From a virus, in the IMG/VR virus record IMGVR_UViG_3300048072_000006, positions 1 through 41,797 of that record: a stretch of DNA of 41,797 nt; one strand, written 5' to 3'. Position numbers and translations under genes: made by a program. A model generated the notes under the pieces. It was not told where the DNA came from and made no database searches. It was given only the letters and a program-made list of their open reading frames with translations. Each line of letters starts with the position of its first letter. Position 1 is the stretch's first letter. Below, one piece after another: positions 21,607 through 36,091 of the stretch.

Positions 21607-21620
21607 TTACAGCATAGGAA

Positions 21621-21797: not shown

Positions 21798-21846
21798 ATC
21801 CTACCCCTTGGTTTGTTGATGATCGCCGCGTTCGATGGCGGCTGAA

Positions 21847-22277: not shown

Positions 22278-22323
22278 GCCAGCTTCTCCTTACTCACCAT
22301 CCCAGCGTTTCGTTCTGTGGGGT

Positions 22324-22950
22324 TCATGGTTGGTCTCCCTCGGTCATGGCTTCCACGACGAGCGGCGGGCGCAGCGCGTATCCTTCCTTAGTCCGCCGCA
22401 GGTATCCGCGCGTCTCGCCAATCGACTGCCAGCGTGGGGGAAGTGCATCGATCTCGGATTGCGTGATCGTGCCGTCGCGCATCGCCTGCATGGCTTCCTC
22501 CATGCGTTGCTGCTTTTCACGACCGATTGCGGCGAGGGCATTGGCCTGGTTACGCACCGCCTCGTCGTCGCGCTCCCACTCGGCCCCGATGCTCATGCAC
22601 TCGGCAATCGTGGGGAACCACTTGCATCGCTCAAGGGCCTGATCGGCGATAAAGTTGATCTGGTCTTTCGGCATGTGGCCGAGCTTGCGCTTGTAGGCGG
22701 CGACGAACAGTTCGCCGGACAGGTCATCCGAACCTTGGCGGGGCAGGGCAGCGCTCATGACCCGCAGGCATTGCGTGAAATGACGATCATCGCAGGGCGG
22801 CAAGGCGGGCAACGGGGCTACCGCCACCTTCTCCAGTTCCGCCAGTTGAGTATCCGTCAGGCGGATCGTAGCCAAGGCTCCTGTCGAGCGCTCTGGCAAC
22901 ACCGTCACGTTTGTCGCGATGGCCTCCGAAATTCTGATTGCCTCTGCCAT
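22324..22950 (-). CDS. Hypothetical replication-module protein, 208 aa (start uncertain)
   Basis: In 22801-22860 this frame has GC3 near 80%, against about 40% for the overlapping tail of the DUF1376 ORF. ATG 22950 ('MAEAIRISEA') is preferred; an alternative ATG lies at 22758. Confidence 0.55.
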   Translation of the reverse strand: MAEAIRISEAIATNVTVLPERSTGALATIRLTDTQLAELEKVAVAPLPALPPCDDRHFTQCLRVMSAALPRQGSDDLSGELFVAAYKRKLGHMPKDQINFIADQALERCKWFPTIAECMSIGAEWERDDEAVRNQANALAAIGREKQQRMEEAMQAMRDGTITQSEIDALPPRWQSIGETRGYLRRTKEGYALRPPLVVEAMTEGDQP

Positions 22951-23623
22951 TGTTTCCAGTCCTTGGATCGTAGATTCCTGCCCAACCATTCTCGACGCAC
23001 GCTCGGAACACTGTGCCGGGTGGCCATCCTGTCTCTCGAGACCAGTGGGCGACATCGCGCAGCAGCTTGGCGTGAGCAGACCCGCTGTTGTTCAAATGTT
23101 TCTTCTTCCGGTTCCCGAGGAAGTCCGACCAGTCGTCAGGGTCAGCAAAATCAGGCCGAGGAAATTTTTCAACGCGCGCGCTCTGTGTCGAAGAAGCTTT
23201 AGCTTCTGAGACTACTTCTGGAGGTGGAGGTGGAGGGGCATTGCGTTCGCTTGTGCGTTCGCATTCATCCGTTTGTTTGTTTTCAGCAACTTGGCCGTTC
23301 CAACGCGCATCAGCAGCAGATTTATTCTTGGCCCTTTTTTCATCGACAAATGCGCGCTCTTTGCTCAAGCGCTTCTGCGCCCACCCTTTCTCAGTGAGCG
23401 TCCAGAAGGCCATCACCGTGCTTTTAAGCTTCGCCCAACGGCCAGCGGTAATGCCCAGCATTCGCGCAAGGCGCGTGTCATCGTCGGGCAGAACGCAGTC
23501 GCTCGAGCGCCAGGCGATCATCATCAATTGCAGATACGCGCCATGCTCCTCGAGCGAGAGGTGCCGAGTGTCTGCTAGATAAGCATCGCCGAACAGCGGC
23601 ATTGAGGGTGCGTTGCTGCTCAT
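22787..23623 (-). CDS. DUF1376-family phage replication-associated protein, 278 aa
   Basis: 'MPLFGDAYLADTRHLSLEEHGAYLQLMMIAWRS...LPDDDTRLARMLG' fits the DUF1376 pattern. ATG 23623 makes an ATGA overlap with the upstream gene. Confidence 0.7.
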   Translation of the reverse strand: MSSNAPSMPLFGDAYLADTRHLSLEEHGAYLQLMMIAWRSSDCVLPDDDTRLARMLGITAGRWAKLKSTVMAFWTLTEKGWAQKRLSKERAFVDEKRAKNKSAADARWNGQVAENKQTDECERTSERNAPPPPPPEVVSEAKASSTQSARVEKFPRPDFADPDDWSDFLGNRKKKHLNNSGSAHAKLLRDVAHWSRETGWPPGTVFRACVENGWAGIYDPRTGNNGRGNQNFGGHRDKRDGVARALDRSLGYDPPDGYSTGGTGEGGGSPVARLAALR

Positions 23624-24309
23624 CAGTTGTTTTCGGAGTTCACCACCAGAGTATCGATAATCTCGTCGGCGCACTGTTCGGCGTCTGCGTAAATCTCCGA
23701 GCCAGTGAAGCGTAAAACGGTAATCCCGCGCCGCGCGAAATAGCGGTCACGCTGCTTATCGCGCTTAGCCTGTTCTTTGGTCTTTTCGTGGTACTGGTGG
23801 CCGTCGCATTCGACTGCGATCCAGCGTGCTGGCTTTGTGCTGCGCGACTGATCGTATACCATGATATCTACGCGGTATGGCCCAACATCTACTTGGGTGA
23901 AAACCAGTGCGCTCTTCTCATCCTCCATCATGGGGTATGGCGCGAAGTTTTCGAAATCGATCACGCGAGCAGAAAAATCTATCTCCTCAATGGCAGTCTC
24001 GGCTTGGGACATTAGAGCCAACATCAAGTGGCGCTCAATTGGGCTTTCGCATCGGCGGGCCATTAAATCGAAGCCCTCGATCCAGCGGATCGCGACGGTC
24101 TGAGCGAACTCCTCGCTCATGCGCTCTGTTCTGGCGCTAAGGTCTTCCCCCTTGCTACCCGTTACCAGTTTCATGGTTGGCACTCCCTTTCCCAGATACC
24201 TTGAACGATGGACCGACACGCGCGGGCCAGTCTTGCCGATGCACTTCGCGCCGGGCTCAACCCCGCAATCAGGGCAATGACGTTTGAACGCTGCGGCTCT
24301 CTTGCTCAT
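23623..24309 (-). CDS. DUF559/Vsr-like PD-(D/E)XK endonuclease-fold protein with N-terminal zinc-finger-like segment, 228 aa
   Basis: 'ESPIERHLMLAL...VGPYRVDIMV...IAVECDGHQYHEKTKEQAKRDKQRDRYFARRGITVLRFTGSEI' is the DUF559 pattern. The N-terminus has 'CPDCGVEPGAKC'. The region is visibly more A/T-rich than its neighbours. Confidence 0.7.
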   Translation of the reverse strand: MSKRAAAFKRHCPDCGVEPGAKCIGKTGPRVSVHRSRYLGKGVPTMKLVTGSKGEDLSARTERMSEEFAQTVAIRWIEGFDLMARRCESPIERHLMLALMSQAETAIEEIDFSARVIDFENFAPYPMMEDEKSALVFTQVDVGPYRVDIMVYDQSRSTKPARWIAVECDGHQYHEKTKEQAKRDKQRDRYFARRGITVLRFTGSEIYADAEQCADEIIDTLVVNSENN

Positions 24310-24593
24310 CCCTGCCGTGCCCTTTCATAAGCAGCGCGGTATTCAGGGTTTTCCCGAATGAGCTTTTCGGCCTTCTGGATGCCAGACATGATCGTGGTGT
24401 GGTGGCGCTCGCCCATGATGCGCCCGATGCGTGCGTAGGAGTAGCCCAGCTTGTCTCTGATCAGCTTGTAGGCCCCGTGACGGACGCAGCTCAGGCCATA
24501 GTCGGACCAGCCAGCCGCATGCCTCTTCAGGCCATCCACAGGGACGCCGAAAGCATTTGCAAGGTCGATCAGGATGCGATCTGACGGCTCTAC
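24306..24593 (-). CDS. DnaA-domain-IV-like HTH protein; 5' end unresolved (no ATG/GTG/TTG near the domain start)
   Basis: 'ILIDLANAFGVPVDGLK...CVRHGAYKLIRDKLGYSYARIGRIMGERHHTTIMSGIQKAEKLI' resembles Bac_DnaA_C. GC3 in this frame is high only downstream of the DUF1064 stop at 24590. The first canonical start is GTG 24539, inside the domain. Confidence 0.55.
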   Translation of the reverse strand, partial: VEPSDRILIDLANAFGVPVDGLKRHAAGWSDYGLSCVRHGAYKLIRDKLGYSYARIGRIMGERHHTTIMSGIQKAEKLIRENPEYRAAYERARQG

Positions 24594-24970
24594 CGGATTT
24601 CGCGCAATTCGATCGATCGATGCAGGTGTTTGAATATCGCTTTGCGCAATGGCCAGTCCCGGCTGTCCGCCAGCCGGCTCTTCGGCTTCACGTCCTCCGC
24701 GATCATTGAGCCATCCGCCGTCCTGTAGGAGAAATCCAGAGTCACCCCGGCGCGTTGGCCGTTGAGCATCTTCACTGTTTCCCCGGCTATCACGAACGGG
24801 TAGAATGGCTGGCGCTCCAGATGTGTAATCTCCCCCGCGCGTTCCAGCAGGGAAAGTTCCATGCATCGGCGCTGCTCCTTGGCGCTGTCGTGGATCAGGC
24901 CGCATACGCACGGTGTCCTTCTGGCTACGCTGTGCTTCGACGGGCCAGTTGCCTGCCAACCTTTCCTCAT
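24590..24970 (-). CDS. DUF1064-family phage protein, 126 aa
   Basis: 'HDSAKEQRRCMELSLLERAGEITHLERQPFYPF...DFSYRTADGSMIAEDVKPKS' fits the DUF1064 pattern. GGAGGG lies 3 nt before ATG 24970. Confidence 0.65.
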   Translation of the reverse strand: MRKGWQATGPSKHSVARRTPCVCGLIHDSAKEQRRCMELSLLERAGEITHLERQPFYPFVIAGETVKMLNGQRAGVTLDFSYRTADGSMIAEDVKPKSRLADSRDWPLRKAIFKHLHRSIELREIR

Positions 24971-25105
24971 TGTCCCTCCATGTCGCTTCAAGGATGCCGG
25001 CGAGGGGCTTGCGACCCAACTTCGCGTGATAGGCAGACATGCGCGCGAGCAGGGAATTGCAGCCCCTTGCCTGCGGTGTCGTCCAGCTTTCTCGACTTGA
25101 GCGCG

Positions 25106-25360
25106 TCACAGGTCAAACGCCCCCTGCATCCCGAGTGCCGAAGCATAGGCCTGGAGGATAGCAGCAGCTTCAGCGCGGTCGTTAGGGTCCATCTTGCGAA
25201 GGCGCACGATCTTGCGCATGATCTTCGGATCGTAGCCGGTCGCCTTGCCCTCTCCGTAAACGTCCTTGATGTCGTCGAAGATGCCAGCCTTCTCGCTTTC
25301 GAGCCGTTCAATGCGCTCAATGAGGAGCCTTAATTGGTCGGCGGCGATGATGTTGCTCAT
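25106..25360 (-). CDS. GapR/DUF2312-family nucleoid-associated DNA-binding protein homologue, 84 aa
   Basis: '[64 protein letters not shown]' aligns by eye with Caulobacter GapR ('LKSIIDRVERLEVEKAEI...[28 protein letters not shown]'). Confidence 0.8.
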
Positions 25361-25465
25361 AATTCTCTCTTCCATTCACGATCAGGCATTGAGGCACGAA
25401 GCTTTCGGGCTGTCTCAATGACCTCGCGGCGGTGTCGGGATACGAAGCGGCCGGACTCGTCGCGC

Positions 25466-25654
25466 TCAGTCGGCGTAGCGGATGGCGATGATGTCAAACG
25501 GCCAATCAGGCGCACCATCATGGATACCATTCCAGTCCTTTGCCGGGATGATCGTGGGGCCTGCGTGAGTGCCGGCGATCTTACCGTTGCGGAATCTGAC
25601 GAGGACAGGGCGCGCGCTCGTGAACGCTCGGGTGCCGGGCCAGTTTGTCCACAT
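25466..25654 (-). CDS. Hypothetical protein, 62 aa
   Basis: GGAGAGG lies about 10 nt before ATG 25654. Only the C-terminal 62 codons of track ORF 25466..26083 look protein-like; its Arg-rich N-terminal part is a shadow frame. Confidence 0.5.
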   Translation of the reverse strand: MWTNWPGTRAFTSARPVLVRFRNGKIAGTHAGPTIIPAKDWNGIHDGAPDWPFDIIAIRYAD

Positions 25655-25683
25655 GTCATGCTGCCTCTCCTGTGCGGAATAGA

Positions 25684-25866
25684 TCACCTTGACGTTGAGC
25701 GTCCTCGATGCGCTTGCAGGCAAAGCTGCGATTGTCCGGACGGCGGGGATGTGGGAGTACCCCCGCCGTCCAGCTTGGCGACCCGGTGGGAGGAGTCGTC
25801 GCCAAGAATGAAGAGCCCCGAACTCACCCGGAGAGCGGCTTGCCCTGGATGGGGGAGGGAGGGCAT
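25684..25866 (-). CDS. Possible small ORF, 60 aa
   Basis: Fills the gap and its start abuts the upstream stop. GC3 is about 68%. No recognisable motif. Confidence 0.3.
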   Translation of the reverse strand: MPSLPHPGQAALRVSSGLFILGDDSSHRVAKLDGGGTPTSPPSGQSQLCLQAHRGRSTSR

Positions 25867-26019
25867 TTATGCGGCTTCCGTGACGCTGATCACATCGCAG
25901 TTGAACTCGATGCTGTCGCCGTCGTCCCAGCCGAATTCGTCCGTGATGTCTGCCACGATGACGACGCGCAGGGGGCCGTCCTTCTTGATGCGCTTGGCCA
26001 GCCTCTTGCGGCCCTTCAT
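25867..26019 (-). CDS. Small protein, possibly AbrB/SpoVT-like, 50 aa
   Basis: The native start is probably ATG 26019 ('MKGRKRLAKRIKKDGPLRVVIVADITDEFGWDDGDSIEFN...'). The track's 15 extra N-terminal codons include 'MYIIP', which is encoded by the IS left inverted repeat. Confidence 0.45.
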   Translation of the reverse strand: MKGRKRLAKRIKKDGPLRVVIVADITDEFGWDDGDSIEFNCDVISVTEAA

Positions 26020-26041
26020 CACGTCGAGCAGGCAATAGGCG

Positions 26042-26049
26042 CTTGTGAA
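26042..26049. repeat. Target-site duplication, left copy (CTTGTGAA)
   Basis: The identical 8-mer is found at 28055..28062, immediately outside the two inverted repeats. Confidence 0.8.
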
Positions 26050-26072
26050 GGGAATTATATACATGACTCCCT
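26050..26072. repeat. IS left terminal inverted repeat
   Basis: See the mobile_element entry: 21/23 match to the right end. Confidence 0.8.
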
Positions 26073-26079
26073 TTTCCTC

Positions 26080-26934
26080 TCATGCCGCTTCACTCGAACA
26101 CCACGCGCCGCACTCGCTATCGGCAGCGTCCGCCTCAATTTCGTCCATTGGAAGCAAGGGGCTGGTTTGCGCGGCCCGCAGCACTTCGTCGAAGCTCTGG
26201 TATCCGAAAGAAAAGTTCCGCGCCTTTTCGTGCGCCGCCCAATACTGTGTGCCAACCGGATCGCGGCGGGCGCGGGATACGCGGGTCTTGAATTGGAGGA
26301 AGGGGCAATGATCGCAGTTGCCGGTCCCTCGCTCCAGCATCAGGTCAAAGGGCTGGACGGCCCAGAAATCCAAAACGTCACCTTTGCGCACACCATCGGT
26401 GGCCAGCGGGAAGGCCAACCTGCGCTCCGCATTACGAGGCTTGCGGGGCAGTTCATAAACCCGGTCATATTCGTCGGCGCGGAAGCCGATCACTTCGGTG
26501 TATTCGCCACGCGCGTAGCCTTGCGCCTCCATAAAATCATGCATCACGCCTACCTTGCACCGTTCGGTGCACCAGCGCCCGGTGATGGTCGAGAACAGGG
26601 CTTGCTTGCGGGCGATCAGCCTATCCAACGGCTCGCCCTTCCGGCTCGCGCTGTTGTAGCCAACTTCTTGAAATCGACTTGCCGGGCCGCCCTTCCTAAG
26701 ATCGGTCACAAATTCCAGCCAACTCACCCGGACGTTCCACCTGGTGGCGCACTCGTGAACGAAACGAAGAGTTTCCTCGCGCTCTTTGCCGGTGTTGGCG
26801 AAGAGGACGAATATATTCTCCGGCAGCGATCCGCCGTGGGCATCGATGATGCGCTTGAGCATCTTCCCGCTGGTGCGCCCACCCGAGAACGAAATCGCTG
26901 CCGGACCGGTGATGAGATATGGATTGCTACCCAT
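26080..26934 (-). CDS. PAPS-reductase/PP-loop ATP-pyrophosphatase-family protein (IS passenger gene), 284 aa
   Basis: PP-loop 'AISFSGGRTSGKML', 'RWCTERCKV', and C-terminal Cys cluster 'GNCDHCPF'. The start was re-picked at ATG 26934 ('MGSNPYLITGP'). Confidence 0.72.
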   Translation of the reverse strand: MGSNPYLITGPAAISFSGGRTSGKMLKRIIDAHGGSLPENIFVLFANTGKEREETLRFVHECATRWNVRVSWLEFVTDLRKGGPASRFQEVGYNSASRKGEPLDRLIARKQALFSTITGRWCTERCKVGVMHDFMEAQGYARGEYTEVIGFRADEYDRVYELPRKPRNAERRLAFPLATDGVRKGDVLDFWAVQPFDLMLERGTGNCDHCPFLQFKTRVSRARRDPVGTQYWAAHEKARNFSFGYQSFDEVLRAAQTSPLLPMDEIEADAADSECGAWCSSEAA

Positions 26935-27066
26935 CGGCCTGCGCCTTCTTCGCCCGTTTGGCGCGCTTCTTTCGCTCCTTCGCGGCATCTGAAACAGGCT
27001 TTGGCCGGTAGCGCAGCACAACGTCTGCAATCGCGTCCAGAGCGGCGGGAGGCTTTGGAGCGTCTA

Positions 27067-27987
27067 TCATGCGATCAGCGCCCCATAGGTCAGGCGCTTG
27101 CCCGCCGAATTGATGATAAAGCTATCCAGACGGTCCAGCGTGTGGCGCTTCACGTCGCCTTCGTTCAGCCGGAAGGCAAACTCATTGACGTAGCGGCCAA
27201 GGTGCTTCGGCGAGGCGTGGTGATAGACACCATGGATGCCGCGCTTGAGCACCGCGAACACGCTCTCGATACCATTCGTGGTGACGTTACCCCGGACATA
27301 CTCGCCAGCGCCGTGGTTGATCGTTTCATGCTTGTAGAGCAACCCGCCCACTCGGCTGTAGATTGCGCTTTCGTCAGTGTGGATGGTCGAGCCTACCTGA
27401 ACGTGGCGATGGGCGAAGCCTACCGCGTTACGCCCAGTGATCGAAGCCTTGACCTCCGCTTTGACGCGACCACTGCCCCGCTCCCGTCCAGCAATAACAG
27501 GCGTCTTGCCTACGCCGCCCCGGCCAAGTCCGAGCCGTTTGTGCTCGTGCTTCGCCGACTCCTTGCCGCCTACATAGCATTCGTCAATCTCGACAATGCC
27601 AGCCAGTTCAGTCGGATCATTGCCGCACGCTTCGCGCAACCGGTGCAGGATGAACCACGCCGTCTTTTGAGTGACGCCGATCTCCTTGGCCAGTTGCAGG
27701 CTGCTGATGCCCTTCCGGGCGGTGACCAGCAGATACATCGCATAGACCCATTTATGCAGCGGGACATGGCTGCGCTCGAAGATGGTCCCGGTGCGAACGG
27801 TGAAATCCTCTTTGCAGGCGTTGCAACGGTAATAGCCGCCCTTCCTCGCCGTAATCCTCTCGCCGCTGGTGCACACCGGGCAGCGCGGGCCTTCCGGCCA
27901 CAGCCGGTTTTCAAGGTAGGTGCGGGCGGTTTCCTGATCGGGGATCATCGCGAACAACTCGAAAGTGGAAATGGTGGACTTGGACAT
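27067..27987 (-). CDS. IS1595-family DDE transposase, 306 aa
   Basis: N-terminal zinc ribbon 'CPVCTSGERITARKGGYYRCNACKEDFTVRTGTIFE', followed by 'VEIDECYVGGK', '...IHTDES.IY...' and 'NGIESVFAVLKRGIHGVYHH', typical of Zn_Tnp_IS1595 plus DDE_Tnp_IS1595. Confidence 0.92.
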   Translation of the reverse strand: MSKSTISTFELFAMIPDQETARTYLENRLWPEGPRCPVCTSGERITARKGGYYRCNACKEDFTVRTGTIFERSHVPLHKWVYAMYLLVTARKGISSLQLAKEIGVTQKTAWFILHRLREACGNDPTELAGIVEIDECYVGGKESAKHEHKRLGLGRGGVGKTPVIAGRERGSGRVKAEVKASITGRNAVGFAHRHVQVGSTIHTDESAIYSRVGGLLYKHETINHGAGEYVRGNVTTNGIESVFAVLKRGIHGVYHHASPKHLGRYVNEFAFRLNEGDVKRHTLDRLDSFIINSAGKRLTYGALIA

Positions 27988-28031
27988 GGATTATTCCTCG
28001 GTTTCTCTAGCGAAACTAGCACAAAATACCG

Positions 28032-28054
28032 AGGGAGTAAAGTATATAATTCCC
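28032..28054. repeat. IS right terminal inverted repeat
   Basis: See the mobile_element entry. Confidence 0.8.
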
Positions 28055-28062
28055 CTTGTGAA
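28055..28062. repeat. Target-site duplication, right copy (CTTGTGAA)
   Basis: Identical to 26042..26049. Confidence 0.8.
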
Positions 28063-28067
28063 GGCCG

Positions 28068-28310
28068 TCACGACGCCCCTCCCTGTGTCCCGTTACGGGC
28101 ATCCTCGGGCGGATAGATGTCCGGGCGCAACTCGTGGCGAGGCAAGCCCAGCGCACGCTCAATTGCAATGACCAGTTGCGGAGGGCACGGCCTCTCGCGC
28201 TGGAACAGCGAGTAGAGATTGGCGGGAGTGCGATCTACGATGCGGGCAAGAGCAGGAATGCCGCCCGCCATATCTCGCGCTTTGGCGAAGGGAATGTGCA
28301 TTTTGTCCAT
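28068..28310 (-). CDS. Cro/YdaS-like HTH regulator, first gene of the leftward arm, 80 aa
   Basis: 'GGIPALARIVDRTPANLYSLFQRERPCPPQLVIAIERALGLPRHELRPDIY' fits the YdaS/Cro-type HTH pattern ('...IE..T.G.v.r.eLRPD'). The start was re-picked at ATG 28310; the track's N-terminal extension runs through the promoter region. Confidence 0.6.
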   Translation of the reverse strand: MDKMHIPFAKARDMAGGIPALARIVDRTPANLYSLFQRERPCPPQLVIAIERALGLPRHELRPDIYPPEDARNGTQGGAS

Positions 28311-28345
28311 GGCGTAACGATAGCGGCGAGCCTCGGGTAACGCAA

Positions 28346-28397
28346 CACAATTTATTTTACGATTGTGCTTGACCGAGCACCAATCGCATTTTACAAG
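28346..28397. promoter_or_regulatory. Divergent early promoter/operator region
   Basis: IR1 is CACAAT-N10-ATTGTG (28346-51/28362-67). IR2 is CGATTGTGC-N8-GCACCAATCG (28360-68/28377-86, one indel). The plus strand has TTGACC (28369-74)-N17-TACAAG. The minus strand has TTGGTG (rc of 28378-83)-N18-TAAAAT (rc of 28354-59). This is the most A/T-rich patch between the two arms. Confidence 0.4.
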
Positions 28398-28477
28398 GAT
28401 GACAGGCGCCACGGAGGGTCCATACTCTCCAGCACGCCCAAGCACAGGCAGCCGATTGCTGCTCACTGGAGGATAAG

Positions 28478-28648
28478 ATGACCCTTGCAGCAGAATTCTA
28501 CAGCGGCACCCGCGCTAAGGCTCCGGTGCTGGATATCGTGCGCATCGGAGACGGTCGTCGCGAGCATGTCGAGACGATCAACGTCATGGGCAAGCGCGAG
28601 GCTCGGGCAGTCGCCCGCGATCTCGGCGCCACTCCTTGGAACTTCTGA
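28478..28648 (+). CDS. Small early protein, 56 aa (below the ORF-track cut-off)
   Basis: Hand translation: 'MTLAAEFYSGTRAKAPVLDIVRIGDGRREHVETINVMGKREARAVARDLGATPWNF'. It is preceded by the same 16-nt TGGAGGATAAGATGAC initiation region as the next gene. Confidence 0.55.
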   Translation: MTLAAEFYSGTRAKAPVLDIVRIGDGRREHVETINVMGKREARAVARDLGATPWNF

Positions 28649-28709
28649 AGTCACCAGAGCACGGTCCCCCACCACCGTGCCGAGGCTGACTTTAGCTTTG
28701 GAGGATAAG

Positions 28710-29534
28710 ATGACAGAGCCAGCATTCCTGAATGAGAAATACGAGGCCACTGGCGAAACGAAGGTTTGGCTCGGCGTCACACTGCACCGCATCCGTGCCG
28801 TTGCCGCTATCGCTGCGCTCGGTATTTCCGCTGGCGATCTCGGCGGGTGGATCGAGAAGCCGGAGAATTTGCAGGCCTATGGCAACGCGTGGGTCTATGG
28901 CAACGCGCAGGTCTATGGCGACGCGCAGGTCTATGGCGACGCGCAGGTCTATGGCAACGCGTGGGTCTATGGCAACGCGCAGGTCTATGGCAACGCGCAG
29001 GTCTATGGCAACGCGCAGGTCTATGGCGACGCGCGGGTCTATGGCGACGCGCAGGTCTATGGCAACGCGTGGGCCTATGGCAACGCGTGGGTCTATGGCA
29101 ACGCGCAGGTCTATGGCGACGCGCGGGTCTATGGCGACGCGCAGGTCTATGGCAACGCGTGGGTCTATGGCAACGCGTGGGTCTATGGCAACGCGCAGGT
29201 CTATGGCAACGCGCAGGTCTCTGGCGACGCGTGGGTCTATGGCAACGCGCAGGTCTATGGCGACGCGCAGGTCTCTGGCCGAAATCACCTCGGATGGTTC
29301 TCCTGCGTCGGCAGCGAGAATGGAACGCTCTGTTGGTTCCTTAACAAAGACAAGGGTGTCACGGTCAATCGCGGATGCTTCTCCGGCTCGCTGGATCGGT
29401 TCCGCGAGGCCGTTGAGGAGACACACGGCGACAGCCCCAACGGGGAGCAATACCGCCTGCTAATCCAGTTCATCGAACTGCGGTCTCAGGATGCGCTCAA
29501 GGACTTTGATCCTGCCGAAGCGGAGGCAGGATGA
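28710..29534 (+). CDS. Hexapeptide-repeat (predicted beta-solenoid) early protein, 274 aa
   Basis: Start ATG 28710 follows GGAGGATAAG. N-terminal domain 'YEATGETKVWLGVTLHRIRAV...GISAGDLGGWIE', then 22 x (Y/S)G(N/D)A(Q/W/R)(V/A), then a Cys-containing C-terminal domain. A paralogue lies at 35394..35867. Confidence 0.8.
   Translation: MTEPAFLNEKYEATGETKVWLGVTLHRIRAVAAIAALGISAGDLGGWIEKPENLQAYGNAWVYGNAQVYGDAQVYGDAQVYGNAWVYGNAQVYGNAQVYGNAQVYGDARVYGDAQVYGNAWAYGNAWVYGNAQVYGDARVYGDAQVYGNAWVYGNAWVYGNAQVYGNAQVSGDAWVYGNAQVYGDAQVSGRNHLGWFSCVGSENGTLCWFLNKDKGVTVNRGCFSGSLDRFREAVEETHGDSPNGEQYRLLIQFIELRSQDALKDFDPAEAEAG
28878..29273 (+). repeat. Tandem repeat: 22 copies of an 18-bp unit (consensus TATGGCAACGCGCAGGTC), in frame within the CDS
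   Basis: Counted unit by unit. Variation is confined to four sites (TAT/TCT, AAC/GAC, CAG/TGG/CGG, GTC/GCC). Units 9-13 and 14-18 form a 90-bp higher-order repeat that differs at a single base (unit 11 GCC vs unit 16 GTC). Confidence 0.97.
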
Positions 29535-29827
29535 TGCCCCCCGCCAATGACCTTGAAGCCCGCGCTGATCGTATTGCCCGGCAATACAAGACAGCAGACT
29601 TGTTCAGGATCGCGGCACGGCTTGTGGAAGTCGCGAGCACAGAGCTTGACGGCGCCGTCGATGAGCATGGCGACGAGATCGACCTTAGCATTGAGACAGG
29701 GGAGGCCTTCGACAAGCTGGAGGCCCTTGCCGGCATGGCTGAAAACGCCCGCGATCCGGTGGACCCTCGCGACTGGGATATGTCCCGCAGCTTCGCCCAG
29801 CTCGGCCTTGTGCGGAGGGCGTCATGA
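29531..29827 (+). CDS. Hypothetical acidic early protein, 98 aa
   Basis: ATGA overlaps at both ends. No motif recognised. Confidence 0.6.
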   Translation: MMPPANDLEARADRIARQYKTADLFRIAARLVEVASTELDGAVDEHGDEIDLSIETGEAFDKLEALAGMAENARDPVDPRDWDMSRSFAQLGLVRRAS

Positions 29828-30192
29828 GCGGGTTCAAGGGAACGCCGGGGCCGTGGGCCGTGTCTTACGCCGACAACCCGAATCATGGGTCTTCGTGGGG
29901 TGGGTACTGGCAGATCGACGATCAGTACGATGCGGTCGCCTGCAACCAGTCTTGTTTCGCTGGCATCAATAAGCCGGACGTGAGCGAGGCCAACGCCCGC
30001 CTGCTCGCCGCCGCTCCTGATCTACTTGAGGCACTGCAAGAGCTTTATCATGCATACTGCTCTGAAACCGGATTTGCTGCCGCCGTGCGCATGGAAAGCG
30101 GGAAAGCCTACCCGTGGGAGCCGGGCGATATCGCTGAGGCGAAGGCCCTCGCCGCAATCTCTCGCGCCCTCGGTGAGGGAGAGAATGCATGA
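29824..30192 (+). CDS. Hypothetical early protein with 'GTPGPW...ANARLLAAAPDLLEAL' motifs, 122 aa
   Basis: ATGA-coupled. It shares 'AAPDLL(E/D)AL' and the C-terminal '(L/T)GEGEN' with 35864..36091. Confidence 0.65.
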   Translation: MSGFKGTPGPWAVSYADNPNHGSSWGGYWQIDDQYDAVACNQSCFAGINKPDVSEANARLLAAAPDLLEALQELYHAYCSETGFAAAVRMESGKAYPWEPGDIAEAKALAAISRALGEGENA

Positions 30193-30428
30193 GCGAGATC
30201 ACGCAAGCACAGCGCGACGCTTTGAAGTGGATGCGCGAGCGGGGCGGAGACGCTGCCGTGGTGCGCGTTCGCGGCGGCGGCAGATACATTCTTGCGCAGG
30301 GCGAGACGGCTCCATTTAGGCCGATAACGTGCCGCGCGCTGATCGACAACGGCCTTGCTGAATACGTCGATCTGAATGGCCGCAGGTCCGTTCGGTTTCG
30401 GCTTACTGCGAAAGGATTGGCAGCATGA
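30189..30428 (+). CDS. Hypothetical protein, 79 aa
   Basis: ATGA-coupled on both sides. Confidence 0.6.
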   Translation: MSEITQAQRDALKWMRERGGDAAVVRVRGGGRYILAQGETAPFRPITCRALIDNGLAEYVDLNGRRSVRFRLTAKGLAA

Positions 30429-30685
30429 CCCCCACCACCAACCACAGCCGTGCAGCAGCCCACTACACCGGACTTCTGGATCAGCTCCACGGTGAGAAGA
30501 TCATGGAAGCTCTGCGTGAACTGGAGCGCGCCCAGATCGATGCAAACAAGGCCAGCGTCATCTGCCAGTCGCGGGACTACGAGATTGCTCACCACGAGTT
30601 GCGCACCGCTCAGATCACGCTCTGGCGCGCCCTCAGCAATGCCGGGTTCGATCCGGCTGTTATCAGGGAGGGGATGGGGCAATGA
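30425..30685 (+). CDS. Hypothetical helical protein, 86 aa
   Basis: ATGA-coupled start. Confidence 0.6.
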   Translation: MTPTTNHSRAAAHYTGLLDQLHGEKIMEALRELERAQIDANKASVICQSRDYEIAHHELRTAQITLWRALSNAGFDPAVIREGMGQ

Positions 30686-30743
30686 GCAAACCCAAGCAGC
30701 TTTCCGCGAGCCTCGCCCGCGCCGCTCTCAGAGGAGAAGGGTG

Positions 30744-31067
30744 ATGGAGTTCTTCCGGGAAGGCACAGTTTCATCACGCAAAGAGCGTCAGTGCGACGCC
30801 TGTGGAACGATGATTGATCCGGGCGAGCGCCACACCTACATGGCCGCGAAATATGATGGTCAGTTCTACACTATGCGGAACCATGCCGAGTGCCGCGAAG
30901 CCGAATGCGCGCTTGCCAAGCTGCATGACCTCTACGGCGGCGATGATGGCTGGATAATGCTCAGCGACATGGATGAGCCGGATGATCTGGCTTTCCTGAA
31001 AGAGCACCATCCGGTCGCCTATGCGCGCGTCGCCCCACGCTATGCCCATTGGGAGACGGGAGAATGA
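30744..31067 (+). CDS. Hypothetical Cys/His-containing protein, 107 aa
   Basis: GGAGAAGGG lies before ATG 30744 ('MEFFREGTVSSRKERQCDACGTMIDPGERH...HAEC'). The track's longer N-terminus is a shadow frame of the previous gene. Confidence 0.6.
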   Translation: MEFFREGTVSSRKERQCDACGTMIDPGERHTYMAAKYDGQFYTMRNHAECREAECALAKLHDLYGGDDGWIMLSDMDEPDDLAFLKEHHPVAYARVAPRYAHWETGE

Positions 31068-31174
31068 CCCCCCGTCAAGCCATCGCCAGCATCAGCTTGT
31101 CCGATGCTCTGTGTGCATCAGCCTTAGTTGGCTTTGTTGCCTCCCTTATTGGAATGATGGGGATGATGCCGTGA
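31064..31174 (+). CDS. Possible 36-aa single-TM peptide
   Basis: ATGA-coupled. 'MTPRQAIASISLSDALCASALVGFVASLIGMMGMMP'. Confidence 0.3.
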   Translation: MTPRQAIASISLSDALCASALVGFVASLIGMMGMMP

Positions 31175-31319
31175 CCCGTCCGTTCGGCTGCGCAGCCAGC
31201 ATCAAACACGGCGGCCGGTCAACTGATCGCTCCGCCCACAAGCAACACCGCATATCACTTATGCCCATGGATCAAGAGAAGCGGTCCATTTGGGATATGT
31301 TCAGGAGGAAGATGTGACA

Positions 31320-31940
31320 ATGGAAGTCTACAAAGCTATTGCCGCCGTGCAAGGTGAACTTGCCAAGGTCGGGATTTCAAAGGATCGGCGCAATACTCAG
31401 GGCACCGGCTACAATTTCCGGGGCATTGATGACGTTTACGCCGCGCTAGCCCCGTTGCTGGCCAAGAACGGCCTGTGCGTTATTCCCCGTATGACCGAGC
31501 GCAGCATGATCGAGCGCACGACCAAGAATGGCGGTGCGATCTTCTACACAACGGTCAAGGCCGAGTTTGACTTCGTCGCCGTCGCAGATGGGTCGAAGCA
31601 CACCGCTTGCACCTATGGAGAGGCAATGGACACGTCCGACAAGTCCACCAACAAGGCAATGTCGGCGGCTTACAAATATGCCGCTTTCCTGACGTTCGCG
31701 ATCCCCACCGATGGGGATAACGATGCTGATGCAGCGACTCATGAGGTCCAGGCACGGACGACGATCAGCAATGAGCAGTTTGCTGAACTGAGCGACTTGG
31801 TTGAGCGCACCAACACTGACCTGGAGCCGCTTTGTAAATATTACAAGATCGACGCACTGGCCATGCTGCCAGCCGCCAAGTTCGGCCACTGCAAAGCACA
31901 GTTGGCCAAGAAGATCAAACCAGAGCAGGAGGCCGCGTGA
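31320..31940 (+). CDS. erf: ERF-family single-strand annealing protein, 206 aa
   Basis: 'VYKAIAAVQGELAKV...GTGYNFRGIDDVYAALAPLLAKNGL' is the ERF N-terminal signature. AGGAGGAAG lies before ATG 31320. Confidence 0.8.
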   Translation: MEVYKAIAAVQGELAKVGISKDRRNTQGTGYNFRGIDDVYAALAPLLAKNGLCVIPRMTERSMIERTTKNGGAIFYTTVKAEFDFVAVADGSKHTACTYGEAMDTSDKSTNKAMSAAYKYAAFLTFAIPTDGDNDADAATHEVQARTTISNEQFAELSDLVERTNTDLEPLCKYYKIDALAMLPAAKFGHCKAQLAKKIKPEQEAA

Positions 31941-32383
31941 TGGAGCAGAGGCGCCTTCTTTGGGTGTGGTCGGACATAAAGGGGCGCTGCCTCAATCCGA
32001 ACCATCGCCAGTACAAGGACTATGGCGGGCGCGGCATCACTGTCTGCGATCGATGGATGGCATTTGCCAACTTCCTAGCGGACATGGCGCCGCGACCTGC
32101 CGGGCTAATGCTCGATCGCAAAGACAATGACGGCCCTTACTCGCCCGAGAATTGCCGTTGGGCGACACGCAAAGAGCAGAACAGCAATCGGCGGAATTGC
32201 ATCTACATTGAAGACGTGGACGGCAAAGTGACCCTGAGGGAATACTGCCGCCGCCGCGAGCTGGCTTACCGGCCGATCGTGAAGCGCATTCAGGACCGCA
32301 ACTGGCCGGTCGAGCTGGCGCTGTCCGTACCTGTCGGCGCGCCAACTCATTTCCTCAAGTCGACACAAAGGAAATCCGCATGA
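31940..32383 (+). CDS. Conserved phage DNA-binding/HNH_3-like (degenerate) protein, 147 aa
   Basis: 'W..IKGRCLNPNH..YKDYGGRGITVCDRW..F..FLADMAPRP.G..LDRKDNDGPYSPENCRWATRKEQNSN' is a recurrent phage motif resembling the second half of HNH_3, with His replaced. Confidence 0.6.
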   Translation: MEQRRLLWVWSDIKGRCLNPNHRQYKDYGGRGITVCDRWMAFANFLADMAPRPAGLMLDRKDNDGPYSPENCRWATRKEQNSNRRNCIYIEDVDGKVTLREYCRRRELAYRPIVKRIQDRNWPVELALSVPVGAPTHFLKSTQRKSA

Positions 32384-33048
32384 CCGTGGATCTTGTCCAA
32401 GGCACCCCTGAGTGGCTGGCTGCTAGAGCGGGAAGCTTGGGAGCCTCCCAAGTTGCAGACGTAATTGCGAAAACGAAATCTGGCTGGGGCGCATCGCGGG
32501 CAAATGTCCGCGCGCGTATCGTAGCCGAACGGTTGACTGGCCGTCCCTCTGAAACGTTCACCAATGCCGCCATGGACTGGGGCCGTGAACAAGAGGAGGC
32601 CGCGCGCGTCGCTTATGCCTTCTTGGAAGGGCGGTCAGTCACCGAATGCGGGATTTTCCTTCATCCCGAGATCAAGGGAACACACGCCAGCCCAGACGGC
32701 TTGGTGGACGACGACGGGCTTGTCGAGATTAAGGCGCCCAACACCTCGACACACATCGACACGCTTAAGTCTCAGGCCATCCCAGGCCGCTACGTCACGC
32801 AGATGCAATGGCAGATGGCTTGCACCGGTCGCCAGTGGTGCGACTTTGTGTCGTTCGATCCCCGGATGCCCGAGGAAATGCAGTTGTTCGTGAAGCGGCT
32901 GCATCGGGATCAAACCCTGATCGAAGAACTTGAAAGCACGGTTTGCGACTTCCTCGCCGAAGTGCAGGCCGACGTGGACCAACTCACCAGACTTTACCGC
33001 AGCGCCGTGGAAGCGCCGCGCGTCTTTAGCCCCCTGGAGGCAGGATAA
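32380..33048 (+). CDS. YqaJ/lambda-Exo-like PD-(D/E)XK recombination exonuclease, 222 aa
   Basis: 'QGTPEWLAARAGSLGASQVADVI', 'ASPDGLVDDDGLVEIKAP', 'QMQWQMACTG' are YqaJ-family motifs. Confidence 0.85.
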   Translation: MTVDLVQGTPEWLAARAGSLGASQVADVIAKTKSGWGASRANVRARIVAERLTGRPSETFTNAAMDWGREQEEAARVAYAFLEGRSVTECGIFLHPEIKGTHASPDGLVDDDGLVEIKAPNTSTHIDTLKSQAIPGRYVTQMQWQMACTGRQWCDFVSFDPRMPEEMQLFVKRLHRDQTLIEELESTVCDFLAEVQADVDQLTRLYRSAVEAPRVFSPLEAG

Positions 33049-33461
33049 TGCAGAACATCACCGTGGCAGGCCGCATCGGAGCAGATGCCGTCACCCGCTC
33101 GACCAACAGCGGCGACAAGGTCACCAGCTTTAACGTGGCCGTCGATTTCCGCGATGGGCGCGACAAGGCAACCAACTGGTGGCGCGTCTCATTCTGGGGG
33201 AAGCGCGGCGATGCCTTGCAGCCATACTTGCTCAAGGGGACGAGCGTCACCGTAACCGGCGAGTTCAGCCTGTCCGAATACGAGGGCAAGCCGCAACTCA
33301 ATATCCGCGCCAATGACGTGACGCTGCAAGGCTCACGAGGCGAGGGCCGGGGCAATGGCGGCAACACTGCCCCGCGCGATGAGAGCCGGGCGGCAGGCGG
33401 CTTTGATGATGGGTTGGACGGGGACGAAATCCCCTTTATCCGCATGGACGGCATGCTCTGA
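33048..33461 (+). CDS. ssb: Single-stranded DNA-binding protein, 137 aa
   Basis: OB-fold N-terminus 'ITVAGRIGADAVTR...WWRVSFWGKRGDAL..YLLKGTSVTVTGE', a Gly-rich linker and the acidic 'DGDEIPF' motif. Confidence 0.88.
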   Translation: MQNITVAGRIGADAVTRSTNSGDKVTSFNVAVDFRDGRDKATNWWRVSFWGKRGDALQPYLLKGTSVTVTGEFSLSEYEGKPQLNIRANDVTLQGSRGEGRGNGGNTAPRDESRAAGGFDDGLDGDEIPFIRMDGML

Positions 33462-33880
33462 TGCTCCGCGCCGTCGCCTTTAAGCCGCGCAGACAGAACA
33501 GTAGGCGTGCTGACGAATGGAAAAGGTGCGAGCCTTACCTTCGCTGGCTGCGTCGGCTGCCCTGCTTCCTGAGCGTCCATGACAAGGATCATGTTTGCGA
33601 AGGCAAGGTGCGCGCGTGCCACTTTGATCCTTGGGGCGACAAGGGAGTGTCGAGCAAGGTGGCGGATGCCTCCGCCCTCCCGATGTGTGACGGAGCCCAT
33701 GCGGAGCAGACTGATCGGATTGGCTGGCCCAAGTTTCAGCGCAAATATGCTTTCGATGGCGGGCACGTCGTCACGGCCTACTGGCTGGAATGGCTCAAGA
33801 CGCCAGCGGGCCGCGCATGGGAGATCGAACACGAGGCAGCAGCTTCCTACGTCGAGACTATGCGGAGGCGTTGGGCATGA
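33461..33880 (+). CDS. DUF968/Ref-like (degenerate HNH-type) protein, 139 aa
   Basis: 'CEGKVRACHFDPWGDKGVSSKVADASALPMCDGAHAEQ' resembles the DUF968 core ('HH....KG.g.K..D...iPLC..HH.E'). Confidence 0.5.
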   Translation: MLRAVAFKPRRQNSRRADEWKRCEPYLRWLRRLPCFLSVHDKDHVCEGKVRACHFDPWGDKGVSSKVADASALPMCDGAHAEQTDRIGWPKFQRKYAFDGGHVVTAYWLEWLKTPAGRAWEIEHEAAASYVETMRRRWA

Positions 33881-34269
33881 GCGGACACACCATCCGGCTT
33901 ACCGACGACTGGCAGCGCGCCCGTGCTCAACGCCTGATCGCGAAGGCCCCCGCTGGCTACGTTGTCACGGTGAACGAACCAAAGCGGACATGCGCTCAGT
34001 CGGACAAGATGTGGGCAATGCTCACGGACATTTCGCACGCAATGCCGATGGGCCGCCGCCACACGCCTGACGACTGGAAAGCGATCGTCATGAACGCCTG
34101 CGGTTGGGAGTGCCAGTTTGTCGAGGGGCTGGACGGGCGACCGTTCCCCAAGGGTTTCCGGTCATCGGAGCTTACCAAGTCGCAAATGTCCACGATGATC
34201 GACTGGATGCAGGCGTTCGGAGACGGTCACGGCGTCCAGTGGGGCGATGAGGCGGAGAGGGCAGCATGA
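33877..34269 (+). CDS. ninB: NinB/Orf-family recombination mediator, 130 aa
   Basis: By eye it aligns with lambda NinB: 'VVTVNEPKRTCAQSDKMWAMLTDIS' vs 'VVTIQERNRSLDQNRKLWACLGDVS', and 'MIDWMQAFGDGHGVQWGDEA' vs 'LLELIQAFGTERGVKWSDEA'. ATGA-coupled start at 33877. Confidence 0.85.
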   Translation: MSGHTIRLTDDWQRARAQRLIAKAPAGYVVTVNEPKRTCAQSDKMWAMLTDISHAMPMGRRHTPDDWKAIVMNACGWECQFVEGLDGRPFPKGFRSSELTKSQMSTMIDWMQAFGDGHGVQWGDEAERAA

Positions 34270-34405
34270 CCTGCTCTATCGGGCGGATCAGGCTCAGCCA
34301 GAACTGTCCATTGTACGAGGATGAGTTTTCCAACGCCACCCGCAGGCAAGCCCCAGGCAGCGGGACACCGGAAGTGGTGGATATGTCTGGGGAAAGGGAT
34401 TTGTG

Positions 34406-34654
34406 ATGGCAGATGAAGTTATTCCGCAGCGCCTGTCTGAACTGGCCGGCGAGCGCATTCTGGAAGCTGTGCCCAATTTAGAGGTGCGGCACCCGTTTGA
34501 TCCAGACGCTTCTGGAGCATGCTTCACGCTGGATGACCGAACTTATCTGGTCTTTGAAGACCCGAGCGACGGGTATCGCAGCACCGCATCCCCGCTGATG
34601 AGCTTTGCAGGCTCGGAGCCCTCAAATGGCCGACATGCCGTGACAGGAGTATAG
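34406..34654 (+). CDS. Hypothetical protein, 82 aa
   Basis: ATG 34406 is coupled (TGATG) to a possible 46-codon ORF at 34266..34406. No motif recognised. Confidence 0.5.
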   Translation: MADEVIPQRLSELAGERILEAVPNLEVRHPFDPDASGACFTLDDRTYLVFEDPSDGYRSTASPLMSFAGSEPSNGRHAVTGV

Positions 34655-34748
34655 CAGTGCGCAAAGGGGCTGAGCCACTGGCTGCAATGCGATGTCGGTC
34701 AATTGATGGACGAGGCCCGCAGTCGCCATGGCGGCGATTGATGATCAG

Positions 34749-34937
34749 CTACAAGGCTGATTCGCGCCTCTCGATCTCAGCTTCAATGGCGGCACGGATG
34801 AAGCTGGATTTCTTTTCGGCGCCGGAAAGAACCGCCTTGATCCGATCAAGCGTTCCGGCGCGAAAGCGCGCCAGCGTCTGTTCGCCGTTGATCTTGGGGC
34901 GCCCAACCTTGGGTCGGCGCTTCGGTCGCTCTTCCAT
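34749..34937 (-). CDS. Ribbon-helix-helix (CopG/Arc/Mnt-type) DNA-binding protein, 62 aa
   Basis: A basic N-terminal arm is followed by 'TLARFRAGTLDRIKAVLSGAEKKSSFIRAAIEAEIERRE' (beta-strand, helix, helix pattern). AGGAG lies 11 nt before ATG 34937. It is the lone minus-strand gene inside the plus arm. Confidence 0.7.
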   Translation of the reverse strand: MEERPKRRPKVGRPKINGEQTLARFRAGTLDRIKAVLSGAEKKSSFIRAAIEAEIERRESAL

Positions 34938-34941
34938 TTTT

Positions 34942-35006
34942 GCGATATCTCCTATTGACGTACCGGATGGCACCAAATATATAGGTGATATCGCCTGTGG
35001 TGGCAA
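34942..35006. promoter_or_regulatory. Face-to-face promoters sharing one -10 box, bracketed by a 14-bp inverted repeat (putative RHH operator)
   Basis: Plus strand: TTGACG (34955-60)-N17-TATATA (34978-83). Minus strand: TTGCCA (rc of 35001-06)-N17-the same palindromic TATATA. The inverted repeat is GCGATATCTCCTAT (34942-55) / ATAGGTGATATCGC (34981-94), matching at 13 of 14 positions. Confidence 0.55.
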
Positions 35007-35049
35007 GTATTGTGAGAGCGGCTGCCACTTATGAACAAGGACAAAGCCA

Positions 35050-35394
35050 ATGACTGACAACGAAGGCCCGCCGCAATGGGCAATGGATCGCGCCCGCGAA
35101 CTGGTCAGGGCGCAATGTCAAGCACAGGGGGTGTCCGTCGCATTCGCCGCTGACATCTTTCACCCGGAAAGGCACCCTGCGGTCAAAGTCCTCGCCGGCA
35201 TCATCGCGACGCACGAGAAGCCGCCCGTCGATCCCGATCTTGAGATCGCGCGGGAGGCTTTGGCGCTGACTTGTGAGGGGCATAGCAATCCCGGTTCCGC
35301 CGCCATGGCCCGCGCCGGGGAATACGACGACACGGCTGGCGTCACCGCCGCCCGCCATGCCCTGCGCCTCGCGCGCGAGAGGGGGGTGCTGTGA
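35050..35394 (+). CDS. Hypothetical protein, first gene of the RHH-adjacent operon, 114 aa
   Basis: AAGGA lies 8 nt before ATG 35050. No motif recognised. Confidence 0.6.
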   Translation: MTDNEGPPQWAMDRARELVRAQCQAQGVSVAFAADIFHPERHPAVKVLAGIIATHEKPPVDPDLEIAREALALTCEGHSNPGSAAMARAGEYDDTAGVTAARHALRLARERGVL

Positions 35395-35867: not shown

Positions 35868-36091
35868 AAGGCAAGGCAACCGCCGGCGGCGACCACTACG
35901 ACACCGCCGCGCCCGACCTGCTTGATGCGCTGATCGACATTCTCGGCTCGCTCAACGTGGCATCCCGGAACCCGAACATCCCCGACGACACCATTGTCCC
36001 GGTGGACATGACGATGGGCGAAATCCGCAAGGGCCTCGCCGCGATCTTGCGCGCCACTGGCGAGGGAGAGAATCGCCATGATTCTCGGTGA
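35864..36091 (+). CDS. Short paralogue of 29824..30192 ('AAPDLLDAL...ATGEGEN'), 75 aa
   Basis: GGGAGGA lies before ATG 35864, with an ATGA overlap. It shares motifs with the 122-aa protein. Confidence 0.65.
   Translation: MKGKATAGGDHYDTAAPDLLDALIDILGSLNVASRNPNIPDDTIVPVDMTMGEIRKGLAAILRATGEGENRHDSR

Follow-up and report, generated by a model that had tools for sequence, protein, structure and literature searches.

Two described proteins come closest to the gene examined here, which lies in a 41,797-nt stretch of viral DNA (IMG/VR record IMGVR_UViG_3300048072_000006; hereafter the window, to whose positions all coordinates refer) and carries 22 tandem 18-bp units within its reading frame. The first is YdcK of Salmonella and Escherichia coli (PDB entries 2F9C and 2PIG), a trimeric LpxA-like left-handed beta-helix protein (PMC4372379). 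Like the window protein, YdcK has an N-terminal domain followed by a solenoid of G-x-A-x-V hexapeptides. However, it is a 326-amino-acid chromosomal protein of unknown function, its aligned repeats are much less regular, and the C-terminal domain of the phage protein is without a PDB counterpart. The second is orf229 of phage Sfi19 (PHROG 7964), which has the same three-part architecture, with homogeneous 18-bp units that vary at fixed columns, and the same place in its genome, just after cro and ahead of genes for recombination and replication. The two phage proteins are about 40% identical and differ in unit number (18 in Sfi19, 22 in the window) and in residue sets (Y/C, G/D, N/D, and R/W/E in Sfi19 versus Y/S, N/D, and Q/R/W in the window). 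The array in the window is a coding minisatellite whose self-homogenizing 18-bp unit encodes the rungs of a predicted solenoid, and comparison with its relatives indicates concerted evolution of such arrays around three variable residues per unit.

The solenoid gene and its predicted fold

By its profile matches, the gene is a further member of a catalogued repeat family of unknown function (PF18836, PHROG 7964). The Pfam model PF18836 (YdcK beta-solenoid repeat) scored 102.4 bits over 11 repeat stretches (gathering cut-off, 30; E = 2e-30), and residues 8 to 260 aligned with positions 25 to 265 of the 269 in the PHROG 7964 profile, close to its full length (E = 5.2e-88). Among PDB sequences, phmmer aligned residues 25 to 188 with residues 26 to 177 of YdcK (2f9c_A/2pig; E = 1.8e-20); the N-terminal domain is included in this match, pairing with YdcK residues 26 to 60 in 2f9c. 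A preliminary description of this DNA, made from its letters alone, had proposed a hexapeptide beta-solenoid, and the homology to a left-handed beta-helix protein bears this out. The NCBIfam equivalog model for YdcK (NF040481) reached 66.8 bits, confined to residues 22 to 114, against a cut-off of 350 bits; because this cut-off is missed so widely, the sequence identifies the window protein as a relative of YdcK and not as its orthologue.

The family is large: more than 7,700 of the 8,000 candidate proteins examined matched at E ≤ 1e-10, and 80 phage records carry a homologue, among them phages of Streptococcus, Bacillus, Vibrio, Xanthomonas, Liberibacter, Mycobacterium, and others. The closest homologues are 67 to 68% identical in protein sequence. 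No database record holds an identical protein, a megablast search with the 8 kb around the gene found no match among phage records, and our literature searches found no paper on the family. Several phage records give homologues unrelated product names (glycerol kinase, acyl-carrier-protein, MFS-type transporter, UDP-3-O-acyl-glucosamine N-acyltransferase, polymer-forming cytoskeletal protein), none of which the domain scores support; these records include Streptococcus Javan prophages, Achromobacter phage Motura, Aeromonas Aer_P220, and Chryseobacterium MA9V.

The coding sequence occupies positions 28710 to 29534 of the plus strand (274 amino acids, stop codon included), with its ATG at 28710 and a Shine-Dalgarno-like GGAGG 5 nt upstream (28700 to 28704, plus strand). 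Its first 56 codons (28710 to 28877) encode a domain resembling the N-terminal domain of YdcK, which closes with a conserved GDLGGWIE..NL motif. The array follows at amino acids 57 to 188 (28878 to 29273), and a C-terminal domain completes the protein (amino acids 189 to 274; 29274 to 29531). Tandem Repeats Finder detected a single strong array at 28871 to 29279, with a period of 18, 22.7 copies, 90% matches, no indels, and a score of 622. Cutting 28878 to 29273 into 18-mers gave 22 in-frame units encoding (Y/S)G(N/D)A(Q/W/R)(V/A), in full agreement with the array first described; degenerate partial units border these in-register units on either side (LQAYGN before, SGRNHL after). When the whole window was scanned for the consensus unit at up to three mismatches, all 21 matches fell within the array (0.06 expected by chance), and no copy was detected outside it.

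Variation among the 22 units is confined to five nucleotide columns. Columns 7, 13, and 14 differ in 8, 7, and 9 units, respectively, and columns 2 and 17 in a single unit each. The preliminary description had counted four variable nucleotide sites; its four variable residue positions stand, but five columns underlie them. It had also noted a 90-bp internal duplication, and units 9 to 13 (29022 to 29111) indeed differ from units 14 to 18 (29112 to 29201) at exactly one of 90 bases, with a 74-nt exact repeat linking positions 29000 and 29090. Because the repeat lacks stop codons in several frames, long alternative-frame open reading frames (ORFs) span the array (28692 to 29450 on the minus strand; 28732 to 29463 and 28766 to 29344 on the plus strand). 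One such ORF inside orf229 of Sfi19 is annotated as a gene in that record (orf129; L136, 3610 to 3999) and is probably spurious.

To model the fold, AlphaFold2 was run on an alignment of 72 sequences. The predicted local distance difference test score (pLDDT) was 75 to 88 in the N-terminal domain, 85 to 97 in the C-terminal domain, and 44 to 69 in the array, and the predicted template modeling score (pTM) of the whole protein was 0.45. A four-residue strand was placed on A-x-V-Y in every unit, so that the model, for all the low pLDDT of the array, gives a strand per rung and not disorder, the outcome that would have spoken against a solenoid. Across the 72 homologues, G42, G45, and G46 do not vary, and the G, A, and V of the unit vary little or not at all. 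AlphaFold2 is known to predict solenoids too readily when repeats are perfect (PMC11795689); for this reason, and because the array model is of low confidence, the fold assignment rests on homology. In such a helix, A4 and V6 would point into the core, G2 and N/D3 would sit at the corner, and positions 1 (Y/S) and 5 (Q/R/W) would face outward. The variable residues had been thought to lie on one face; with an 18-residue turn and one hexapeptide per side, they are instead expected on all three sides and at the corners. The protein has no long hydrophobic stretch typical of a membrane segment or signal peptide and is therefore probably cytoplasmic.

The C-terminal domain, four beta-strands followed by two helices, was predicted with higher confidence when folded alone (pLDDT, 92; pTM, 0.81). 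A Foldseek search against the PDB found no fold match for it (best E = 0.34), and the other hits obtained with the full model and with this domain were weak (RNA polymerase beta subunit and a PipX-like fold; E ≥ 0.34, TM-score ≤ 0.41). The domain carries the motifs G-C-F-x-G...F and T-H-G. The first of these (amino acids 221 to 233; about 29370 to 29408) resembles the active-site motif G-C-F-W-G of MsrA; we considered a relationship to MsrA and set it aside, as the likeness is local and probably due to chance (E = 0.3, profile versus PDB). The motif cysteine, together with a histidine 16 residues downstream, is kept in at least 90% of the aligned family members.

A profile of this domain gathered 3,707 clusters at 50% identity. 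In a Foldseek search of a viral structure library, the domain turned up again in members of the family and as the C-terminal part of pentapeptide-repeat proteins from phages; its BFVD matches were A0A6J7X720, A0A6J5NJK4, A0A6J5RFV7, and A0A068CBC1, with possibly also one leucine-rich-repeat protein. One further protein (P0217) joins an A-N-L-x-G array to the same domain, and some family members end in another C-terminal domain. These combinations suggest that the domain, of about 80 amino acids, is a constant part that can be joined to repeat rods of more than one kind.

Concerted evolution and turnover of the arrays

For comparison, 133 homologous loci were taken from genomes and viral contigs, and column statistics were computed on 103 distinct homologous arrays. 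Four columns were polymorphic in the great majority of these arrays (column 2 in 91%, column 7 in 94%, column 13 in 98%, and column 14 in 83%). Every other column was polymorphic in at most 13% of the arrays, with fourfold-degenerate third positions at 2 to 9%. Between arrays, the unit peptide was conserved and the unit DNA was not: the major alanine codon was GCT in 40 arrays, GCG in 36, GCA in 15, and GCC in 12, and the codons for Gly, Val, Tyr, and Asn were likewise array specific. Within most arrays, the same residue was written with the same codon, in about 130 loci from hosts of 30 to 68% G+C. Because codon choice differs between arrays while the units within an array match, these data indicate that the family arrays, as far as sequence comparison can tell, are under concerted evolution, with three repeat-variable and putatively surface residues (Y/S, N/D, and R/W/Q). 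Homogenization thus outpaces synonymous divergence, yet three positions remain heterogeneous, and something must therefore keep them so. The near-identity of the window units had been ascribed to recent expansion, or to ongoing slippage or recombination. It is not evidence of a recent expansion specific to this phage, since about 100 arrays from hosts of 30 to 68% G+C are in the same steady state.

Across the family, position 1 is Y (53%) or S (26%), position 2 is G (89%), position 3 is N (55%) or D (35%), position 4 is A (94%), position 5 is R (30%), W (28%), or Q (18%), and position 6 is V (91%). The variable positions 1, 3, and 5 combine almost freely (observed/expected, 0.8 to 1.25), and residue sets specific to lineages account for most of the pattern in the pair tables. 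At position 5, the third option is Q or E depending on the array, almost never both.

The number of units changes between close relatives. Homologues whose N- and C-terminal flanks are 100% identical carried 16 versus 22, 14 versus 22, 33 versus 24, and 19 versus 16 versus 21 units; these differences are block duplications or deletions, and the 60 nt of DNA flanking each side are identical. In three Vibrio breoganii phages with flanks 99.4 to 100% identical, the genes measure 768, 783, and 804 nt, the third with stop codons in the array. Between the Liberibacter phages SC1 and P-JXGC-3, a 72-nt (four-unit) duplication gives SC1 an extra copy. The comparison of repeat numbers among relatives that the preliminary description had called for therefore shows unit number differing despite identical flanks. 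A search of complete E. coli genomes with the DNA of an Obesumbacterium homologue (L142), made for copy-number polymorphism, found no match.

Unit content also changes where length does not. Of the 18 positions at which Sfi19 and CHPC919 differ across 2,687 nt, 14 fall within the 324-nt array (binomial P = 2.6e-10), at columns 2, 5, 7, 8, and 12 to 14, with nearly all of them at the columns that toggle. The array has diverged by 4.3%, as against 0.1% for the DNA outside the gene; array length is constant, and unit types have been exchanged. The locus had been called contingency type. That part of the claim which concerns speed holds, in that the tract changes faster than its surroundings, as seen in relatives; the implied switch does not. 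A frameshift-type phase switch was rejected, as the 18-nt unit corresponds to six codons and all 22 units lie in frame inside the coding sequence. Because such a unit never shifts the reading frame, slippage cannot turn the gene on or off.

Annotation of these loci is uneven. In the Vibrio phages 1.034.X, 1.034.O, and 1.139.B (L137 to L139, about 1640 to 2000), the array is annotated as five or six "CRISPR spacers," which are false calls, and in 1.139.B, stop codons inside the array split the gene. In the Liberibacter homologue (L143, 1302 to 1950; L144, 1266 to 1878), a frameshift separates the N-terminal domain from the array, the locus is annotated as two genes, and the C-terminal domain is missing.

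A proposed tunable rod and its alternatives

The interpretation we favor, and regard as reasonably probable, is that the gene encodes a YdcK-type left-handed beta-helix rod, made early in infection, whose array is reshuffled in register and whose exposed residues vary to form a binding or scaffolding surface. Each 18-bp unit would encode one side of the three-sided helix, and the product would be a cytoplasmic rod of about 7 to 8 turns. Because the units are almost identical in DNA, they would recombine or slip in register, so that units are duplicated, deleted, or converted while the array stays homogeneous and polymorphism persists only at the exposed positions, which we infer to be 1, 3, and 5. 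Likely drivers are replication slippage and the single-strand-annealing recombinase of the phage (ERF here, Sak4 or RecT elsewhere), with ERF and YqaJ perhaps promoting recombination between repeats. The rod would present its surface to a host or phage partner, and the C-terminal domain would serve as the constant module. The protein would thus be a binding rod of tunable surface and length, for which gene position and hypervariability suggest a possible host-interaction or anti-defense role; at most, length and surface would be tuned, not expression switched on and off.

In a bolder version, which we regard as doubtful, the protein is a widespread "programmable" phage scaffold: the variable residues and the number of rungs would set specificity for a host target, the recombinase would reshuffle the array, and the C-terminal domain would act as anchor or effector. 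If this were true, the target might be, for example, an immune sensor or effector, and the system, residing in an early gene of phages whose hosts range from Firmicutes to Proteobacteria, would be functionally comparable to the diversification of transcription activator-like (TAL) effectors or of lamprey variable lymphocyte receptors.

Several observations weigh against a tunable left-handed helix. When the whole model was searched against the PDB, YdcK (2pig) was the top Foldseek match, but a weak one (E = 0.057; TM-score, 0.20). The array is the part of the model with low confidence (pLDDT, 44 to 69, in a model with a pTM of 0.45), and both the handedness of the helix and its three units per turn are taken over from YdcK by homology. 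Three units per turn would be expected to leave a signature in unit order, but autocorrelation of unit types in about 236 arrays (L001 to L133 and P0001 to P0120) gave no peak at lag 3; the missing peak was unexpected for such a helix. In the same arrays, adjacent units (lag 1) were identical less often than expected, and units at the even lags 2, 4, 6, and 8 slightly more often. Not every array changes in length over short periods, as those of Sfi19, Sfi18, and CHPC919 are equally long. Most copy-number comparisons involve short-read assemblies, which may collapse arrays, and one homologue with flanks very similar to those of the window protein has only 1 to 2 units, possibly by such a collapse (P0147). 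In the window alone, all five variable columns are non-synonymous, an excess that is not significant (P about 0.28), so that the argument for selection rests on the family. Finally, PADLOC defense models gave no hit to the solenoid gene or to three of its neighbors.

The alternatives are taken here in declining order of probability. The first, which is possible but in our judgment rather unlikely, is that the variation is a neutral by-product: the protein would be a spacer rod or domain cap, repeat instability would be unavoidable, and positions 1, 3, and 5 would merely tolerate change, with nothing tuned. The near independence of the variable positions (observed/expected, 0.8 to 1.25), the lack of a lag-3 stacking signal, the equal lengths in Sfi19, Sfi18, and CHPC919, and the lack of a conserved partner gene nearby all fit this view. 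Mere tolerance, however, should extend to fourfold-degenerate sites, which are at least as tolerant and are polymorphic in 2 to 9% of arrays as opposed to 83 to 98% for the variable columns. The same small residue sets (Y/S, N/D, and R/W/Q or E) also recur in phages with hosts from Firmicutes to Proteobacteria.

A second alternative concerns the array as assembled and is unlikely: the array would be real, but 22 would not be the true copy number, or not the only one in the phage population. The proteins encoded on either side of the gene were found in one sample, SRR35523485. Its independent Logan assembly of the same phage, at k = 31, contains contigs 100% identical to positions 20478 to 28906 (L135) and 29245 to 37620 (L134) of the window; this assembly is interrupted at each border of the array and is without the array interior, 28907 to 29244. 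Many family gene models are truncated or chimeric and end in the array (for example, the database homologues P0124, P0150, and P0147), and one Vibrio record has stop codons within it. On the other side, the longest exact repeat inside the array is 74 nt and no 77-mer occurs twice. Reads of about 100 nt or more can therefore resolve 22 copies, reads of 100 to 150 nt bridging the array unambiguously, and the copy number of 22 in the assembly is plausible.

An improbable third reading makes the protein a DNA mimic like Qnr or MfpA, a rod that would block a host nuclease, a restriction enzyme, or a RecBCD-type complex early in infection. The same C-terminal domain sits on pentapeptide-repeat solenoids of other phages, the gene lies near Gam-like and recombination genes, and the window protein is acidic (pI 4.5; net charge, −13). 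The family as a whole is not strongly acidic, however (median pI, 5.7; about −1.5 per 100 residues), and R (30%) is the most frequent residue at the exposed position 5. Established DNA mimics carry a much larger negative charge. The window array has a period of six residues (18 nt) and not the five-residue periodicity of pentapeptide repeats.

Polymerization end to end into bactofilin-like filaments, as the label "polymer-forming cytoskeletal protein" suggests, is very improbable. Several homologues bear such names in NCBI and UniRef, and the Bactofilin model PF04519 scored 27.2 bits, just below its gathering cut-off of 27.9. This score remains under the cut-off and reflects a match to generic G-x-A-x-V periodicity, and folded domains at both ends of the solenoid (pLDDT, 75 to 97) would cap the ends through which bactofilins polymerize. 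Still less plausible is a hexapeptide-repeat acyltransferase of the LpxA, GlmU, or NeuO type. The fold class is the same, annotations such as "putative acyltransferase" occur in phage records, and weak matches were obtained to Hexapep (PF00132; 16.2 bits, cut-off 27) and to the NCBIfam models of GlmU (18.1 versus 666 bits) and LpxD (15.9 versus 207 bits). All of these enzyme models fall far short of their cut-offs; the perfect repeat is featureless and lacks insertion loops, and a freely varying number of rungs is hard to square with a fixed active site.

To hypermutation by a diversity-generating retroelement, or a DNA-level role of the repeats as iterons or replication origin, we give next to no credence: variation does fall in fixed nucleotide columns, several of them adenines, and lambdoid origins do have repeats of similar length inside a gene, but the window has no template copy of the unit elsewhere, a reverse transcriptase was detected neither in the ORFs searched with PHROG or Pfam (a subset of the window ORFs) nor in the genes called at 20.5 to 37.6 kb nor among the conserved neighbors at about 130 loci, column 13 shows C/T changes as well, and only the peptide of the unit, not its DNA, is conserved between arrays.

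What deserves attention is the pattern across the family. We did not find described elsewhere what the family presents, thousands of phage early genes built from DNA-identical 18-bp rung units with three variable, putatively exposed residues per rung, and between sibling phages the arrays change at roughly 40 times the rate of neighboring DNA. The gene holds one of the first positions after the lysis/lysogeny switch, the usual place of anti-defense and host-takeover genes. Should the variable surface serve in recognition, it would constitute a new kind of fast-evolving interface between phage and host and, in addition, a natural modular beta-solenoid scaffold. There is also a practical side: such arrays break short-read assemblies, yield truncated or chimeric gene models and spurious alternative-frame ORFs, and lead to misannotation as CRISPR arrays, glycerol kinase, acyltransferases, or cytoskeletal proteins.

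Genomic setting and comparison with other repeat systems

The window is the genome of a tailed phage of temperate type. Its minus strand encodes the large terminase, portal, major head protein, amidase, and tail-collar protein. A divergent repressor-like helix-turn-helix gene (28068 to 28466, minus strand; phrog_35, Pfam YdaS_toxin) marks the early switch region, and the rightward arm begins with a 56-amino-acid ORF without a family match (28478 to 28648, plus strand). The solenoid gene comes second in this arm, as the preliminary description had placed it, and is followed by six small genes, the ERF single-strand annealing protein (31320 to 31940, plus strand), a 147-amino-acid gene, the YqaJ exonuclease (32380 to 33048, plus strand), SSB, a 139-amino-acid gene, and NinB; ERF and YqaJ were assigned by Pfam on genes called in the Logan contig L134. 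The Sfi19 homologue likewise comes after cro, in the order cro, orf40, orf229, Gam-like, Sak4, helicase, SSB. In Streptococcus thermophilus phages, a promoter upstream of cro drives strong early transcription of the genes downstream (PMC13575424). Across about 130 loci, no fixed partner gene was found, the neighbors being generic recombination and replication genes.

Other features of the window lie around this region. Two genes downstream of the solenoid gene is a small early protein of 122 amino acids matching PF27050 (Phage_P22_Y8K6; 29824 to 30192, plus strand). An insertion sequence of the IS1595 family adjoins the repressor-like gene on its left, within the early switch region; its 306-amino-acid transposase (27067 to 27987, minus strand) was recognized by the Pfam models Zn_ribbon_IS1595 and DDE_Tnp_IS1595. 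An 802-amino-acid ORF antisense to the transposase and its neighbors (25708 to 28116, plus strand) is most likely an artefact of 61% G+C. Tandem Repeats Finder detected three further short tandem repeats in the window, at 2275 to 2305 (15 bp, 2.1 copies), 16320 to 16364 (22 bp, 2.1 copies), and 35603 to 35643 (15 bp, 2.7 copies).

Beyond YdcK and orf229, four known systems invite comparison. Bactofilins (PF04519) have a beta-helical G/V/A periodicity in common with the window protein, whose score of 27.2 stays below the 27.9 of that family. Bactofilins have disordered tails; in the model of the window protein, folded capping domains are predicted in their place. The pentapeptide-repeat phage proteins, such as A0A068CBC1 of Listeria phage LMTA-57 and P0217, have the C-terminal domain in common with the window protein (Foldseek E, 7.5e-5 to 1.8e-2; TM-scores, 0.58 to 0.74). 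Their solenoids have a period of 5 in place of 6 and are unrelated in sequence.

NeuO of prophage CUS-3 is a phase-variable O-acetyltransferase with a left-handed beta-helix (PMC3046976). It resembles the window gene in being prophage encoded and in belonging to the hexapeptide left-handed beta-helix fold class. It is a proven enzyme, whereas the 18-nt unit of the window gene stays in frame and itself encodes the helix. Phase variation of NeuO comes from a varying number of 7-nt tandem repeats at the 5' end, which set the frame on or off; these repeats do not make up the helix.

The repeats of TAL effectors offer a likeness by analogy only. They are not homologous to the solenoid units, and their 34-residue helical units read DNA, whereas the window gene encodes 6-residue beta rungs with no known ligand or code. 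The two systems nevertheless resemble each other in how their repeats are organized and how they would evolve, with units that are nearly identical in DNA, variation at fixed exposed residues, reshuffling by recombination, and alleles that differ in copy number.

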